Assembly: GCF_900604535.1 (NCBI RefSeq)
Contig: NZ_UWOT01000003.1
Location: 186,216 to 210,215, forward strand
Direction of reading: 5' to 3'
Source: Romboutsia sp. Marseille-P6047
GTDB lineage: Bacteria; Bacillota; Clostridia; Peptostreptococcales; Peptostreptococcaceae
DNA: 24,000 nucleotides
Shown in pieces: positions 2,160-7,461 of the stretch. The position numbers and the translations under genes are program-made. Below the pieces are notes generated by a model that saw only the letters and a list, made by a program, of their open reading frames with translations, ran no database searches and was not told the origin of the DNA. Positions within the stretch are counted from its first letter, which is position 1; the number at the start of each line of letters is the position of its first letter.

Positions 2160-2329
2160 AGGAACGTTGCATACTTTTTATGGAGTACTCCAAATGGCAC
2201 GCTCCAAAAGGGTGCACTTATAAAATAAGCTACAATACTGTATTTTACTAGGGTTTAAGCTTCTAAATCAATGTAGTATAATAAAAAGTATAAATTTGCT
2301 TAGTATTTAGGTTATTCTGGAGGATGTAT

Positions 2330-2977
2330 ATGAATGTCATTGATATAAAGAATATAAAAGGTTTATCAGGAAAATATTCAATAAAGTTTGGTAAAGAAAA
2401 GAAATATGTAAACATAGAGGATGATAAGATAACATTATTTGGTCGTATAAAAAGTTATGCTCATGGAGGTTGGTGTAACTATAAAATACAAGATATATTT
2501 ATATCTAAGCAAAAGACAGGTTTTGGAGAAAAGAAATTCTTTGTTTGCCCAGAATGTGGTGAGCGAAGGACTAAAATTTATTGCTATGATAATAAAGAAG
2601 TATTTAAATGTAGAAGCTGTTTAGGTAAAAATATATATTCTGAAAGATGTAATTTATATGATGGAGGAGGGGTAGCTCTTATTGAATATAAGTTTTTTAA
2701 TTTAATATCGGAGCTTGATTTAAGCGAAACCTCAAAGAAAAGACATATACCTTTTGATAGTAGATATTATGGATCATGCAAACCTAAATATATGAGGTAT
2801 GAAAAGTTTGAGTTAATATTAAAGCAATTAACAGCTTTATCAGCTATGAGAGATACTGTTATATTACAAAAGTGCTCATATAGTACTAAGTATATAAATG
2901 GATTATTGAATAGTAATGTACTAAAGAAGCTTAAGTTAATAGATATACCTGATGCTATATGGTTTCATGAAGTATAA
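2330..2977 (+). CDS. Hypothetical zinc-ribbon protein
   Basis: ORF 2324-2977. GGAGG at 2319-2323 favours the ATG at 2330. A sigmaA-like promoter lies upstream (TTTAAG, 17 nt, TATAAT at ~2254-2282). The protein has a CPEC...CRSC pair (FVCPECGERRTKIYCYDNKEVFKCRSC). No other family was recognised. Confidence 0.55.
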   Translation: MNVIDIKNIKGLSGKYSIKFGKEKKYVNIEDDKITLFGRIKSYAHGGWCNYKIQDIFISKQKTGFGEKKFFVCPECGERRTKIYCYDNKEVFKCRSCLGKNIYSERCNLYDGGGVALIEYKFFNLISELDLSETSKKRHIPFDSRYYGSCKPKYMRYEKFELILKQLTALSAMRDTVILQKCSYSTKYINGLLNSNVLKKLKLIDIPDAIWFHEV

Positions 2978-3094
2978 GTATTAATAGAATATATAGAGTA
3001 ATTATTAGAATATAAATAGTAACCATAATTATAATATTTAACATATTATAATTAAATGTAAGTTATAAGACAATAATTTAAAAAGAGGTTTTTA

Positions 3095-3123
3095 TTGTTA
3101 GACCAACGATAGGATGGTATAAT
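3095..3123 (+). promoter_or_regulatory. SigmaA-type promoter of the peptidase/cyclase/TM cassette
   Basis: TTGTTA (3095-3100), a 17-nt spacer, then TATAAT (3118-3123) preceded by TGg (extended -10). The RBS aaggaagggag (3134-3144) precedes the ATG at 3151. Confidence 0.6.
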
Positions 3124-3150
3124 CTTGTTAATAAGGAAGGGAGTGGTATA

Positions 3151-3678
3151 ATGGATTATCGTACTAGAAATATAATAAATAAATTGGCTGATGAGATTAT
3201 AGAATCTTATAAAATTACCGCACCTATTGATGATTTAGAAAGTTTTGTGGAATCTATTGGAGGTAAAGTGACAGAAAATAATCTTAAAAGTGGGTTCTAT
3301 GATGGTCGTATAACTACTCAAAATACAGATTATGAGTTTGAGATTTTTATTCCGGAAAATCAGTATCTAGAAAGAAAAAAATTCACAATAGCACATGAAT
3401 TAGGACATTTATTTTTGCATATGGGTTACCAAATAGATGATGATTTATGGGAGGAGCAACGAGGTAGAGATTACTATAGAAATGGTAGTTCAGAAGAAGA
3501 GCTTCAAGCTAATGAATTCGCAGCAGCATTATTAATGCCAAGGGATGAATATAAGAAAATAATGGAGAAATATACGGACGGAGTATCCGTTAATACAGCT
3601 GAAATTGCTAGATACTTTGGTGTATCTATACAGGCTGCAGCTAATAGAGGAAAATGGTTAGGGTATTTAGCATGGTAG
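3151..3678 (+). CDS. ImmA/IrrE-family (M78-like) zinc metallopeptidase
   Basis: 175 aa. It has the HEXXH motif in FTIAHELGHLFLH, plus the downstream EEELQANEFAAALLMP segment typical of ImmA/IrrE (DUF955) peptidases. Its stop codon overlaps the start of the next gene. Confidence 0.8.
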   Translation: MDYRTRNIINKLADEIIESYKITAPIDDLESFVESIGGKVTENNLKSGFYDGRITTQNTDYEFEIFIPENQYLERKKFTIAHELGHLFLHMGYQIDDDLWEEQRGRDYYRNGSSEEELQANEFAAALLMPRDEYKKIMEKYTDGVSVNTAEIARYFGVSIQAAANRGKWLGYLAW

Positions 3679-5156
3679 ATAAAAAACTTAATTTGGATAG
3701 TAGTCTTATAAAATCTTTGAAAGAGATACGAGAAAATACTGAAGAAGAAAGTAAGAGTAGCAATGTTATTTTATTTTTTTCGTATGATATAGTTAATTCA
3801 TCTTTATATAAAACTGTTAACTATTCAAGTTGGACTATAGTAATAAATAATATATTTAAATACGTAGATAGTTTAGTTACGGAAAGAATGCCTAATTGTG
3901 AATTATGGAGGATACTAGGAGATGAAGCCGTATATATTGTACAAATAAGAGATATTGAACAGATATATAAAAATATTGACTCAATATTTGAGATACTTTG
4001 CAAAACAAAAGAGTATTTATCTAGTGGAGAAATATTTAAAAATTGTAAGTCTGAAATAGATATAGAAATAATGAAAATGCAAAATATATTATCTATAAAA
4101 GGGTCTTCTTGGTTAGCCATTGTTGCAAATGATATTAATGCAAAGGGGTCTAACGTTGAAAATGCTTATTTGCATTATAATAATTTTGAATCAATAAAAA
4201 ATCCAGGTTTTTTTGAATTTTTAGGTAAAGATATAGATGCTGGATTTAGAATTTCAAAAGAAACAAGAGATAGAAGGTTAGTTTTAAGCTTTGAGCTTGC
4301 ATATATTTTGAAAATGAGAACAGATTACTTATCAAAGCTGAATCTAATAACATTTAGAAGACTTAAAGGTATCTGGCATGAAAAATTATATCCAATTATA
4401 TGGTTTCATGATAGAGAAAAGTTTAAAAATATATCATTTGAAGAAAGTTTTAAATTTGATGAGCTAGAAGAAGATGAGCTATCTAGGGAATATTTTAATA
4501 ATAGAAAAAAAGGTAATAGTAGTAATATAAATCAGTATATTTATGAAGATATAAATGGTGCATTAGATAAGATTTTAGAAGATAGAAATCTAAAAAACAA
4601 GATAGAAAAAATATATTCTACTATAGAGGCTACATCGGAATATCATAAAGACTTTACTAATATAATACCTTTAGAAATGCATTGTGTAGCTATTTGTTAT
4701 AAAGTAAATAAATCTGATGGATCAATACAAATATTAGTTGCAAAGAGATCTAGTAAGAAAAAACAAAATCCATCAATATGGGAGTTTGGATGTGCAAAAG
4801 CTAATTATAAAGATAGTATTATAGATACTATAAAAAATGAGTATAAAAAAGATTTTAATATAGATATTGATCTAATATGTTACGAAGATAGAAATGAAAA
4901 GCAACCTATACCTATAGCAGTATATGAAATTGAAAAAGGTTCAGATATACATAAAGGTGTAATATTCATAGCAGAATGTAAGAATGATGAATCCGTAGTA
5001 CGTATAAATGATAAACATGAAGAAGTAAAGTGGATTAATGTAGAAGAAATAGAAACTTTTAGAGATGAAGAATGTGTATTAGATTTTAAAAATACTATTA
5101 ACATAGCCTCTAAGAAAATAAAAGAAATGAGGGAAAATATATTCGAGTATGCCTAA
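3654..5156 (+). CDS. Fusion protein: N-terminal class III nucleotide cyclase-like domain (PycC/adenylate-guanylate cyclase fold) plus C-terminal Nudix-fold domain with a degenerate Nudix box
   Basis: 500 aa; an alternative start is the ATG at 3672 (ATGgTAG overlap with the peptidase stop). Cyclase-like motifs: ILFFSYD45IVNSS (compare FxDIxGFT), WRILGD90EAVYIV (compare KTIGDAxMAxF), LGKDIDAGFR199ISKETRDRRLVLS (compare GxxVNxAxRxxxxxxxxxIxVS) and ITFRRLKG239IWHEKLYPIIWF (compare LKGxxxPVxVYxL). Nudix-like: HCVAICYKV...ILVAKRS...IWEFGCAKANYKDSIIDTIKNEYKKDFNI aligns to WxxPGGxxExGExxxxAAxRExxEExGU, but REx2EE is NEx2KD. ...HEEVKWINVEEI lies at the end. Confidence 0.75.
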   Translation: MVRVFSMVDKKLNLDSSLIKSLKEIRENTEEESKSSNVILFFSYDIVNSSLYKTVNYSSWTIVINNIFKYVDSLVTERMPNCELWRILGDEAVYIVQIRDIEQIYKNIDSIFEILCKTKEYLSSGEIFKNCKSEIDIEIMKMQNILSIKGSSWLAIVANDINAKGSNVENAYLHYNNFESIKNPGFFEFLGKDIDAGFRISKETRDRRLVLSFELAYILKMRTDYLSKLNLITFRRLKGIWHEKLYPIIWFHDREKFKNISFEESFKFDELEEDELSREYFNNRKKGNSSNINQYIYEDINGALDKILEDRNLKNKIEKIYSTIEATSEYHKDFTNIIPLEMHCVAICYKVNKSDGSIQILVAKRSSKKKQNPSIWEFGCAKANYKDSIIDTIKNEYKKDFNIDIDLICYEDRNEKQPIPIAVYEIEKGSDIHKGVIFIAECKNDESVVRINDKHEEVKWINVEEIETFRDEECVLDFKNTINIASKKIKEMRENIFEYA

Positions 5157-5716
5157 AAGAAATTTTGAACAGGACGTTTTGGATGACTTAAAGTATATAT
5201 TTGAGAATGTAAACAATTGGCTTAACTTTGCGGAGTTAAAGAATGGAGCATTATTAGTATTTCTAACAACAGTCATAATTGGATTAACCCAATTAAATTT
5301 ACCTGATGATAGTAATATACTAATCAAGATATTTTATATAGTATCAATGATTGATATACTTATAAGTATAATTATATTACTACTATCTTTTGTTCCTAAG
5401 ATAAGTAATATAAAGCCTAAATATAATGCTAATATAAATTATCTTAATAAGAATCTTATATTTTGCAGATATAATCAAAGCTAGGGATTATGAAGAATAT
5501 TTAATAAATATATATGAGGATTATTACAATACAATTGTATCCAAAGAAGAGTTAAACTTAAAAGAAAAGCATTTAGCTGAGGAGATTTTTATAAATTCAA
5601 ATATAGCATCTAATAAATATAATTATTTTAAATATAGCTTATATTGCTGTTTACCTGGTATAATTTTATCAATTATACTTATATTAATGATTTATATAAC
5701 AAGCTATATATACTAA
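5149..5716 (+). pseudogene. Small 3-TM membrane protein (putative effector; possibly Pycsar-effector/SLATT-like), interrupted by a 1-nt frameshift
   Basis: The ATG at 5149 overlaps the upstream stop (ATGCCTAA). Frame 1 ends at the TAG at 5482-5484. Frame 2 is open from 5438 to the TAA at 5714-5716 and encodes ...FADIIKARDYEEYLINIYEDYYNTIVSKEELNLKEKHLAEEIFINSNIASNKYNYFKYSLYCCLPGIILSIILILMIYITSYIY. Deleting one T from the T4 run (5461-5464) joins both parts into a ~188 aa protein with three hydrophobic helices. The second part has no start codon of its own near its beginning. Confidence 0.7.
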
Positions 5717-5742
5717 ATTAAATAAATTGTTTTACATATAAT

Positions 5743-5770
5743 AAGGATTCTTGATATAGAGTCCTTTTTT
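5743..5770 (+). terminator. Rho-independent terminator closing the three-gene cassette
   Basis: aaggattc (5743-5750) pairs with gagtcctt (5759-5766), with one G-U. T6 follows at 5765-5770. Confidence 0.7.
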
Positions 5771-6506
5771 ATTACAACTATCAGAACTATAAATATCAGA
5801 ACACAATTACAATTAAATTTAAAGAAAATAAAAAGGTTAAATAAGGAATCGATTAGATATAATGAGATTCAATCTAATTTACAAAATAATAAATAGAGCA
5901 ACTTTTATAGAGATATTGAAAATATTATGATGTAAATGTAATAATTGTTTATTATTATGTTGGCCGATTGCTAAAGAGTGCATCTATTTTGATTTATAAT
6001 GTATCCTTTTTATATATTAATAAGAATATGCAAAACGATGAATAAGAATGATATTTACATAAATATTCAGATCAGAGACTTGATGTTTCAATATTATATA
6101 AATTTTACTTAGTATCATTTAGCTAGTTAATAATTATAAAGTTTATATTTGTTAGAAAATAAGAGTGGAAATAATATAGTATACATGTGTGTTATAAGAT
6201 AAAAAATAAACTTCTTAATATAATAGAATGAGAATGATACCAAGATAGATTTTAATATTTAACGTATAAAAAGTTGTAAAGCATAAATTGGATTATAAGG
6301 CACTCGCATTATATTAGTAATGTATTTATACCTTGTAATGCTTAAAATGGCATATAAAAGATATAACACAAAATAACACAATATTAACACAACTAATATG
6401 AAAAATAATAGAAAGTGCAAATTTTACATTAGCATATTGTATTAGCAAAAGTATTGATATAACTAAGTTTGATTGAATGTAGAAAAATATTAAAATTATA
6501 ATTATA

Positions 6507-6540
6507 GACTCCCCTCGTCTCCACCATTAAAATCCACGAA
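6507..6540 (+). repeat. tmRNA (ssrA) 3'-end fragment plus conserved flank (att-site remnant), copy A
   Basis: gactcccctcgtctccacca (6507-6526) reads as T-loop end, T-stem 3' strand, acceptor 3' strand CGTCTCC and ACCA of a Firmicute-type tmRNA. It is followed by ttaaaatccacgaa (6527-6540), a flank shared with copies B and C. No tmRNA 5' part (GGGGACG..., tag ORF) lies upstream. Confidence 0.65.
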
Positions 6541-6543
6541 AAG

Positions 6544-6570
6544 TCATACTAAATTTAGTATGATTTTTTT
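6544..6570 (+). terminator. Rho-independent terminator immediately after ssrA-like copy A
   Basis: tcatacta (6544-6551), loop aatt, tagtatga (6556-6563), then T7 (6564-6570). Confidence 0.75.
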
Positions 6571-6735
6571 GTATGAAAGAATTATATATTTATTAAAAAA
6601 ATGTTAACTCTATTATAACTAAGTTAAAAGTATATAAACTAAAAAAAAATATGCTAGTATGTTAAATAGGCTATGTTAAACTATTTGTTCAACATAGTCT
6701 ATTAAAAAAATAAATTTAGTAGAGGTAATTAAGTT

Positions 6736-7461
6736 ATGATAAAGAATTTTGCACATCGTGGATTTAGTGGTAAGTATCCAGAAAATACTCTTTTAGCATT
6801 ACAAAAAGCGATAGAAATAGGTAGTGATGGCATTGAATTTGATGTTCAGTTAACAAAAGACGGACAAGTTGTAATTATACATGATGAAACTATAGACCGT
6901 ACTTCTGACGGAACTGGATATGTATGTGATTATACTTATGATGAACTAATAAAATATGATTTTTCAGGACGTTATATGGGGAAAGTTGAAAAACAAAAAC
7001 TACCTCTTTTAAAAGACTACTTTGAAATGGTTAAAGACACTAACATTATTTCAAATATAGAATTAAAAAATAGCATTCTTGATTATAAAGATATAGAACA
7101 AAAAGTGTATGGATTAATAGTGGAATATGGTTTAAAAGATAAAGTTATTATTTCATCTTTCAATCATGAAAGTATAATTAGAATGAAAAAAATTGATGAA
7201 AGTATTGTATGTGGTTTTCTTGTAGATTGTACTATGTTAGATGCACCAATGTATATCAAAAAATATAATGTTGAGTGCTTCCATCCTTCAGGATATAGCT
7301 TAACAAAAGAAAAGGTAGAAGCTCTACAAAATCAAGGTATATTGGTTAATGTATGGTTAGGAAGTCATAACATGGATTACAAAGAACTAATAGATATGGG
7401 AATAGATATACTAATATCAGATAATCCAGATCAAGTAAAAGAAATTATAAGCAACTTATAG
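6736..7461 (+). CDS. glpQ: Glycerophosphodiester phosphodiesterase (GDPD family)
   Basis: 241 aa. The N-terminus FAHRGFSGKYPENTLLALQKAIEIGSDGIEFDVQLTKDGQVVIIHDETIDRTSDGTG is the classic GDPD signature (HRG...PENT...E.D...T.DG..V..HD). Confidence 0.85.
   Translation: MIKNFAHRGFSGKYPENTLLALQKAIEIGSDGIEFDVQLTKDGQVVIIHDETIDRTSDGTGYVCDYTYDELIKYDFSGRYMGKVEKQKLPLLKDYFEMVKDTNIISNIELKNSILDYKDIEQKVYGLIVEYGLKDKVIISSFNHESIIRMKKIDESIVCGFLVDCTMLDAPMYIKKYNVECFHPSGYSLTKEKVEALQNQGILVNVWLGSHNMDYKELIDMGIDILISDNPDQVKEIISNL

Follow-up and report, generated by a model that had tools for sequence, protein, structure and literature searches.

According to our analysis, a compact three-gene cassette in the genome of Romboutsia sp. 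Marseille-P6047 (assembly GCF_900604535.1) looks like a decayed copy of a new variant of the Pycsar immune systems. The stretch analysed, which we call the window, comprises 24,000 nucleotides (nt) of contig NZ_UWOT01000003.1 (positions 186,216 to 210,215 of the forward strand), and coordinates below are window positions unless another sequence is named. Its part 2999-5863 appears, from sequence comparison, to be a self-contained mobile unit of ~2.9 kb composed of genes for a peptidase, for a fusion of a cyclase with a Nudix-like domain, and for a PycTM effector. We suggest, with somewhat more confidence than doubt, that this cassette is a protease-gated, Pycsar-type cyclic-nucleotide abortive-infection system built on a previously unrecognised cyclase lineage.

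In such a system, upon an infection trigger, the middle protein, homodimeric through its class III cyclase domain, would convert a nucleoside triphosphate to a cyclic nucleotide; the latter would activate the PycTM protein with its three transmembrane helices (3-TM), the membrane would be permeabilised, and the infected cell would be killed or arrested. The peptidase would be a trigger or gate acting on the cyclase itself and not on a transcriptional repressor, with the cut falling most plausibly within the helical extension (residues ~263-340) that joins the cyclase to the Nudix-like domain. This last domain may serve as a nucleotide-binding sensor or an autoinhibitory module, in the position that AGS-C takes in Pycsar-2 cyclases.

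All three genes lie on the same (+) strand, as confirmed from the listing of open reading frames (ORFs) and by direct reading. Gene 1 (3151-3678) is the ORF of an M78 peptidase of 175 amino acids (aa); gene 2 (3672-5156) encodes the cyclase-Nudix-like fusion, whose length is 494 aa if translation begins at the ATG of 3672 and 500 aa if it begins at an alternative ATG, at 3654; gene 3 (5149-5716) is an effector pseudogene, read in frame 0 over 5149-5484 (a 111-aa ORF) and then in the +1 frame to 5716. Genes 1 and 2 overlap by 7 nt, ATGgTAG at 3672-3678, where the cyclase ATG takes 3672-3674 and the peptidase stop TAG 3676-3678, and genes 2 and 3 overlap by 8 nt, ATGCCTAA at 5149-5156; a preliminary description of this DNA had claimed both overlaps, and direct reading found them exactly so. 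The true cyclase start is most likely 3672 rather than the ATG upstream, since homologues align from that methionine and the ATGGTAR overlap recurs in related loci; M7 and V8, numbered from 3654 as are all gene 2 residues here, are near-invariant. Aligned by blastn with a related genome that bears the trio in different surroundings (L075), the window shows 88% nucleotide identity over 2999-5863 only, and it is because the homology stops at the cassette borders that we regard the cassette as a mobile unit. A public contig of 2,420 nt (L076) covers 3434-5848 at 99.7% identity and encodes an identical cyclase.

Dozens of species, and phages as well, have kept together the trio proposed in the preliminary description. 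All five homologues retrieved by exact-protein look-up have the order M78, cyclase/Nudix, PycTM, and a scan of one genome per species gave 66 loci, chiefly in Lachnospiraceae and Oscillospiraceae and also in other phyla. When these loci were searched with hidden Markov models built from the three proteins, counting only loci with enough flank, the peptidase was found immediately upstream of the cyclase in 61 of 63, and PycTM adjacent in 46 of 61 (immediately downstream in 44, upstream in 2). The upstream coupling of the peptidase, likewise noticed earlier, is realised mostly by the 7-nt ATGGTAR overlap of peptidase stop and cyclase start (44 of 62 loci; another 7 overlap by 4 nt); how the cyclase and effector genes join varies among related loci. 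Three divergent metagenomic proteins (P0209, P0249, P0204) have M78 fused directly to the cyclase domain and lack the Nudix-like domain. On Leptospira plasmids an ImmA/IrrE peptidase is followed by a 313-aa cyclase-only homologue, again lacking a Nudix-like domain and with no PycTM nearby (for instance L. interrogans plasmid pLiSL40, L078 3443-4924). The peptidase-cyclase pair thus appears to be the tighter core of the cassette. Broken copies are recurrent, with the effector split in L002 and L021 and the cyclase split in L049, L058, L059 and L065, as would be expected of a costly suicide system.

Two groups of loci are worth recording for what follows the pair. In a divergent subgroup from metagenome-assembled genomes (MAGs) of Faecalibacterium and Eubacteriales (L064 7442-8563, L066 6969-8087), where PycTM is not next to the peptidase-cyclase pair, the pair is followed by a membrane-anchored GGDEF diguanylate cyclase (Pfam, E = 3e-25) and a solute-binding protein, and this neighbour could be a coincidence or an alternative output. 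In Lachnospiraceae/Clostridium MAGs that have no PycTM (L028 7555-8709, L050 7554-8708), a 384-aa multi-pass membrane protein, which matches no Pfam or PADLOC family, stands directly downstream and is a candidate alternative effector.

Gene 1 encodes an ImmA/IrrE/CapP-like M78 zinc metallopeptidase, in agreement with the HEXXH peptidase of the preliminary description: its product matches Pfam Peptidase_M78 (PF06114) at 1.1e-21 and PADLOC capP at 8.6e-30, the latter over 4-149 of the 242 positions of the model, and its best PDB match by sequence is CapP (7t5t, 1.6e-6). The protein consists of the peptidase domain only and has neither a helix-turn-helix (HTH)-like linker nor a GAF domain; with 175 aa this minimal peptidase is presumably about the size of ImmA. 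Its HEXXH motif is H82/E83/H86 (3394-3408), and E117 is the likely third zinc ligand. Across 60 species E83, H86 and E117 are conserved at >=95% and H82 at >=80%, so that an active protease is to be expected.

What this protease would cut is the point at which our reading departs from known M78 systems. Neither in the window nor in five annotated homologous contexts does a CapH-type HTH repressor lie beside the cassette, and among 123 nearest neighbours across 31 chromosomal loci the HTH_19 domain occurs only twice; because no HTH partner exists, we do not propose that the peptidase cleaves a transcriptional repressor. One may argue that the cyclase and PycTM do form a defence system and that the peptidase is nevertheless a CapP/ImmA-style transcriptional switch, so that a host or prophage repressor of XRE or BlaI type, encoded elsewhere, is cleaved upon DNA damage or the appearance of single-stranded DNA and expression of the operon goes up. 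We consider this rather unlikely, even if it draws on the best PADLOC and PDB match of the peptidase being CapP, on CapH+CapP being known regulators beside CBASS, Pycsar, BREX and DISARM (PMC13373217; bioRxiv 10.1101/2022.04.27.489752), on a BlaI/Penicillinase_R-family repressor encoded ~1.8 kb upstream of the trio, on the other strand, in the Clostridioides difficile phage phiCDHM19, and on a 21-nt tandem repeat (2980-3021) just upstream of the promoter. CapH/CapP are described as lying upstream of the adjacent operon and controlling it (PMC13373217), whereas here the peptidase is inside the operon and coupled to the cyclase by the conserved overlap. Since a repressor partner and the accessory domains of CapP/IrrE are lacking, while translational coupling and cyclase fusions exist, a CapP-style switch is unlikely, and our proposal is that the peptidase has the cyclase protein as its target.

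As for the place of the cut, CapP cleaves CapH at F82|R83, and known M78 proteases cut a helical dimerisation segment of the substrate (bioRxiv 10.1101/2022.04.27.489752). By analogy with CapP/CapH we infer that the helical extension of gene 2 (4440-4673) may be the most plausible site. It is kept even where the Nudix-like domain is not, namely in the 313-aa Leptospira homologue and in the peptidase-cyclase fusions. This extension was delimited by secondary structure, a predicted local distance difference test score (pLDDT) of 80-96 and conserved columns. A more specific proposition we offer as tentative: a protease of the ImmA family would sense infection, or gate the response to it, by binding a second-messenger synthase, the cyclase, and cutting it in the helical extension ahead of a pseudo-Nudix domain of autoinhibitory or sensor kind, so that cyclic-nucleotide synthesis is switched on. 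Such a protease-activated branch of cyclic-nucleotide immunity would be superinfection-exclusion cargo of C. difficile phages such as phiC2 and phiCD27 and common in human gut Clostridia.

The third gene is a genuine PycTM, or CBASS "2TM" (pJV1-spdB3 3TM), membrane effector that is a pseudogene here. Even its two halves in the window are recognised by the PADLOC models (2TM at 5.9e-22 and 2.7e-12, PycTM at 1e-10 and 3e-8), and the intact 185-aa allele of L076 reaches 33.7 bits against Pfam PycTM (PF18967; gathering score 27.2), 5e-40 with PADLOC 2TM effector and 7.5e-23 with PADLOC PycTM. By eye, the intact effector has two N-terminal hydrophobic helices, an ~80-residue helical cytosolic segment and a C-terminal hydrophobic helix, which is the 3-TM arrangement that a 2026 survey of immune cyclases describes for the pJV1-spdB3 family (bioRxiv 10.64898/2026.08.12.744502). 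PycTM and PucTM 3-TM proteins are experimentally characterised abortive-infection effectors of Pycsar and Pucsar (PMC11224242; bioRxiv 10.64898/2026.08.12.744502), and activation of the present one by a cyclic nucleotide would follow their pattern. The preliminary description had set this protein apart from Pycsar as too small for a cyclic-nucleotide-binding domain; that difference disappears, the protein being a regular PycTM member and canonical PycTM models being 154-165 residues long.

A frameshift had also been reported in gene 3, and it is present, only as a deletion of 2 nt and not of 1, with an intact product of 185 aa and not ~188, when the window is aligned with L076 and L075. It lies at 5461-5464, where a run of four T replaces the six of the intact allele, and it ends the effector frame after about residue 105, removing the cytosolic segment and the third transmembrane helix. 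A second 2-nt (TT) indel relative to L076 falls between 5700 and 5701, just before the effector stop, and lengthens the frame in the window by a few codons, up to a stop at 5714-5716. The loss of TT twice in the space of 240 nt may be a sign either of genuine decay or of an artefact of the assembly or of the homopolymer. Because of the 2-nt deletion, the window copy is probably non-functional, or at least unable to kill.

For the cyclase, an AlphaFold2 model of the full-length gene 2 protein, with 43 homologues as input, had a pLDDT of 82.9 and a predicted template modelling score of 0.70. Foldseek searches of the PDB matched its N-terminal half to the class III adenylyl/guanylyl cyclases Cya2, CyaC and RhGC, with template modelling scores (TM-scores) of 0.68-0.78 normalised to the target. 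When residues 34-262 (3753-4439, + strand), which we delimit by these two methods as a divergent class III nucleotidyl cyclase domain, were modelled in isolation (pLDDT 82.3), all top-50 PDB fold matches were class III cyclases (best E 1.4e-9, to CyaC; TM-scores of 0.70-0.78 to the target), and none among those 50 was a GGDEF, Cas10, CD-NTase or PycC entry. The predicted fold of the N-terminal half is therefore that of a class III adenylyl/guanylyl cyclase, and the fold placed there by the preliminary description stood the structure search squarely.

Canonical class III cyclase motifs are F-x-D-I-x-G-F-T, K-x-I-G-D and N-x3-R. The family motifs FFSFD(45)IVNST, W-R/K-x-L-G-D(90)-E and G-x-D-I-D(195)-x-G-F-R(199) correspond to these three, the D195-x3-R199 motif (4236-4250) replacing the canonical N-x3-R. 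The predicted metal ligands are D45 (3786-3788) and D90 (3921-3923), with E91 also in the motif set. Among 103 relatives taken from a library of sequences clustered at 50% identity, D45, D90, E91, D195, R199, W85 and K53 are conserved at 98-100% (D45 in 101 of 103; D90, D195 and R199 in each of the 103), and the catalytic-motif residues are retained at 23-30% identity in Treponema, Floricoccus, Halobacillus, Gastranaerophilales and a gammaproteobacterium. The spacing of 45 residues between D45 and D90 matches that of 44 between the metal aspartates of PycC (D102/D146 and D62/D106; PMC11224242). The residue four positions before the second metal aspartate is R/K, compatible with several nucleotides, and we would expect synthesis of a cyclic nucleoside monophosphate (cNMP) from such a site.

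It is still conceivable that this palm-fold domain makes a signal other than a 3',5'-cNMP, such as an oligonucleotide, linear or cyclic, or a modified nucleotide, which would bring the cassette closer to type I CBASS with a 2TM effector. The cyclase is indeed extremely divergent: it has no sequence-level match to class III cyclases, its transition-state motif has Asp in place of Asn, and its R-x-L-G-D-E hairpin recalls GGDEF. The effector scores better on PADLOC CBASS 2TM than on PycTM models. However, both model sets match this effector and its homologues in L001 and L007, which makes the score gap weak evidence; the top-50 fold matches are all class III mononucleotide cyclases; and the FxDIVxxT and GDE motifs together with the aspartate spacing fit the class III pattern. 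We regard this alternative as unlikely, a little more so than the transcriptional switch discussed above, and keep to a cNMP cyclase of class III fold.

The surroundings of the cassette are relevant to its function. A tblastn search of phage genomes found full-length homologues with 47% identity in the temperate C. difficile phages phiC2, phiCD27, CDKM9, phiCDHM19 and phiCD508, and the gene is also carried by 30 viral contigs of IMG/VR and matches phrog_6174 (8e-131), which PHROGs lists as "unknown function". In phiCDHM19 (L077, NC_028996.1 29018-31683) the three products are annotated as "metallo-protease", "putative Nudix hydrolase" and "DUF5706 domain-containing protein" (that is, PycTM), and the PycTM gene is convergent rather than co-directional with the peptidase-cyclase genes. 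The phiC2/phiCD27-group trio is placed between endolysin and integrase, in the lysogenic-conversion module. In one bacterial lineage the trio stands alone between dapF and gatC, far from phage genes, and in another its neighbours are a PLD-helicase and an Eco57I-type methyltransferase. The set of 123 nearest neighbours includes four occurrences of BrxC/BrxD, three of ResIII and at least one of RloB. The prophage cargo position and the neighbours of BREX and restriction-modification type (ResIII, Eco57I-type methyltransferase) suggest an anti-phage abortive-infection function, and to judge from these searches the cassette appears widespread in gut Clostridia and in C. difficile phages.

The same distribution could be taken for that of a non-immune module of mobile elements, either a prophage switch of the ImmA kind between lysis and lysogeny or under stress, or a toxin-antitoxin-like addiction module with PycTM as the toxin. 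The cassette does occur on temperate phages beside the integrase, on plasmids and in an island bounded on one side by an ssrA-like attachment (att) remnant, a quarter of loci lack PycTM, and ImmA proteases control element induction (bioRxiv 10.1101/2022.04.27.489752). We nevertheless find such a module improbable: the same cassette is found alone between housekeeping genes, it has no repressor partner, the lysin-integrase interval is a classic cargo site for superinfection exclusion and not one of core regulation, and PycTM is an established abortive-infection effector (PMC11224242).

The C-terminal third of gene 2, for its part, has a predicted Nudix/MutT fold: Foldseek matched it to 3grn (E 2.8e-8, TM-score 0.78 to the target), and the gene 2 profile matched MutT in the PDB at 0.0015. 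The domain spans 4674-5156 (residues ~341-470 and a C-terminal helix), so that both folds of gene 2 in the preliminary description are borne out by structure prediction and fold search. The catalytic Nudix box is GX5EX7REUXEEXGU. In the window protein the box is degenerate, with NEYKKD at the REUXEE positions, and positions 395, 396, 399 and 400, equivalent to MutT R52/E53/E56/E57, are variable across the 103 relatives, the commonest residues being E in 23, E in 28, E in 24 and D in 44. Conservation does extend to core residues, among them the W-E-F-G that defines the fold. Of the Nudix-like module noted earlier, the fold is therefore present and the conserved catalytic residues are missing; since box positions vary while core fold residues are kept, we read the domain as non-catalytic, probably a sensor or regulatory module of nucleotide-binding type rather than a hydrolase. 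In its first strands one His and three Cys, H343, C344, C348 and C380 (~4680-4793), are conserved in 72-93 of the 103 relatives and might make up a metal site. That the domain is instead an active hydrolase, either a cis effector depleting nucleotides or NAD derivatives or a brake destroying substrate or signal, is equally improbable as a non-immune module, for, although the fold prediction is confident, some distant relatives exceed the Pfam NUDIX threshold (and only they do: P0246 with 36 bits, the L057 protein with 22 bits), E396 and D400 are kept at two box positions in the window protein and loci without PycTM need some output, the MutT-equivalent positions are variable, the peptidase-cyclase pair persists in relatives without the domain, and Nudix chemistry splits pyrophosphate bonds, not 3',5'-cyclic phosphodiesters.

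Several observations weigh against a protease-gated Pycsar-type system, and they have to be set beside the evidence above. The cyclase relationship is not detectable at the sequence level: family models, run on the window protein and 10 divergent relatives, gave no match to PADLOC PycC (E<=1) or to Pfam PF00211 (E<=10), the cyclase-domain profile matched no PDB cyclase sequence, and, marginal Nudix signals aside, no family of Pfam, NCBIfam or PADLOC matches gene 2 significantly. With no sequence-level match and with PycC structures outside the top-50 fold matches, the lineage is far from characterised PycC, and its product could differ from a 3',5'-cNMP; the canonical transition-state asparagine, moreover, is exchanged for an invariant aspartate (D195). 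PycTM is not obligatory, as no PycTM could be recognised within 6 kb in 15 of 61 loci, nor beside the Leptospira pairs. In the window copy the effector is broken. The association with defence islands is modest, most of the 123 neighbours being unrelated housekeeping genes and the counts being raw ones. To our knowledge, all known M78 substrates are HTH repressors, and cleavage of a cyclase is without precedent.

Expression signals and flanking elements complete the picture of the window. Upstream of gene 1 there are two tandem sigma-70-like promoter matches on the + strand (3095-3152), both with a TG extension: TTGTTA-17-TATAAT at 3095-3123 and TTGTTA-16-TATAAT at 3125-3152, with the ribosome-binding site AAGGAAGGGAG downstream. 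The promoter reported earlier at 3095-3123 thus exists as a consensus-like match, but promoter-like matches are no commoner in DNA this rich in AT than in its shuffles (43 against an expected 41.5), and a cassette promoter here is plausible. The terminator fares better: an intrinsic terminator-like hairpin (5743-5766; 9-bp stem with 3 GC) and T-run occupy 5743-5772 on the + strand, three terminator-like sites were found in 2200-6800 against 0.4 expected, and the hairpin is conserved in the alignment with L075 and L076. An imperfect 21-nt tandem repeat, ATTAATAGAATATATAGAGTA / ATTATTAGAATATAAATAGTA, spans the left cassette border at 2980-3021, and a 15-nt tandem repeat, TACAACTATCAGAAC / TATAAATATCAGAAC, follows directly past the terminator at 5773-5802; both could be operator or recombination sites, or chance occurrences in AT-rich DNA.

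Around the cassette there are a sigma-70-like gene and orphan ORFs. Immediately upstream, at 2324-2977 and outside the region common to the related cassette, there is a 217-aa ORF with a CxxC...CxxC zinc-ribbon, which matches Zn_ribbon_IS1595 weakly (0.0027) and falls into none of the families of PADLOC, PHROG and NCBIfam. A 20-nt string GACTCCCCTCGTCTCCACCA at ~6507-6526, some 650 nt past the downstream end of the cassette, resembles the last 20 nt of Firmicute ssrA and is followed by a terminator-like hairpin and T-run at ~6541-6570. It looks like an att-site duplicate at the right end of an integrated element holding the cassette; of the ssrA remnant reported earlier the string is present, and gene calling over the whole window gave neither a transfer-messenger RNA nor a tRNA. 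On the whole, the structural elements of the preliminary description all lie where it had placed them, and its interpretation is supported as far as computation goes: of the refuting tests it had itself named, all those open to computation were run, and none refuted it.

If our suggestion is true, a large family would be added to cyclic-nucleotide immunity, since, among representatives of clusters at 50% identity, the cyclase-domain profile has 1,787 matches with E<=0.001, of which 1,009 reach E<=1e-10. Its cyclase being too divergent, this family escapes the models of Pfam, PADLOC-DB v2 and PHROGs v4 that we applied. It would bring two ideas undescribed for Pycsar or CBASS, an obligatory and sometimes fused ImmA-type protease partner without a repressor substrate, and a catalytically degenerate Nudix domain in the sensor position. 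Well-studied C. difficile phages have, in their lysogenic-conversion region, three genes that have long been labelled "hypothetical / putative Nudix hydrolase / metallo-protease"; these would acquire a function, which would have a bearing on phage therapy and on prophage-mediated exclusion in C. difficile and, more broadly, in the gut microbiota. Intact alleles, including those of cultured C. difficile phages, make the hypothesis directly testable.

Among known systems, Pycsar is the closest in plan: a cyclase of class III fold stands beside a pJV1-spdB3/PycTM 3-TM effector, the cyclase has an additional C-terminal non-catalytic domain and a predicted N-terminal helix, and the operon is compact and mobile, with abortive-infection logic to be expected. 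The present cassette differs in that its cyclase is missed by the Pfam Guanylate_cyc and PADLOC PycC models, and in that it has a third component, the translationally coupled M78 peptidase, which is almost obligatory. The 2026 survey of immune cNMP cyclases describes Pycsar-1, -2 and -3, Pycsar-like-4 and Pucsar, and reports AGS-C at the C-terminus of Pycsar-2 cyclases and of type I CBASS CD-NTases; a text search of its main text met no mention of Nudix, ImmA or M78 (bioRxiv 10.64898/2026.08.12.744502). In contrast to AGS-C of Pycsar-2, described as immunoglobulin-like, the C-terminal domain here has a predicted Nudix fold, and the gene 2 protein does not match Pfam AGS_C at E<=1. Literature searches, of incomplete coverage, found no description of a peptidase / cyclase-Nudix / PycTM architecture.

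With CapH+CapP, ImmR+ImmA and DdrO+IrrE the cassette shares an M78 HEXXH peptidase whose catalytic residues are conserved and whose gene opens an immune operon at its 5' end. It differs from them by having no HTH repressor partner, whereas CapH+CapP beside Pycsar and CBASS operons are always paired with the HTH protein (PMC13373217; bioRxiv 10.1101/2022.04.27.489752), and CapP/IrrE consist of three domains (peptidase, HTH-like linker and GAF; bioRxiv 10.1101/2022.04.27.489752) against the peptidase alone here. Since the peptidase gene overlaps the cyclase gene and is fused to it in some relatives, the partner of the peptidase would be a non-repressor protein. Type I CBASS with a 2TM effector is also alike, in combining a nucleotide-synthesising enzyme with a small transmembrane effector of the same superfamily and in that its synthase can carry a C-terminal sensor domain (AGS-C); the synthase here has, unlike CBASS, a class III cyclase palm fold and not that of a CD-NTase (Pol-beta), and no PADLOC or Pfam model of CD-NTase/SMODS matches the cassette proteins.

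Non-catalytic Nudix-fold ligand sensors with a degenerate box and an attached output module are known from NrtR transcription factors and from the NUDT9-H domain of TRPM2. The degenerate Nudix box on an output module is a likeness that suggests nucleotide binding; here the output is a cyclase, and beyond the fold no sequence relationship was found. PADLOC models do not class the cassette as a known system, in keeping with the preliminary description: they recognise the peptidase (capP) and, in the intact allele, the effector, and the cassette escapes identification because they miss the cyclase. We see it, then, as a new variant, Pycsar-like in plan, with a cyclase outside the PycC sequence models and with two extra conserved components.

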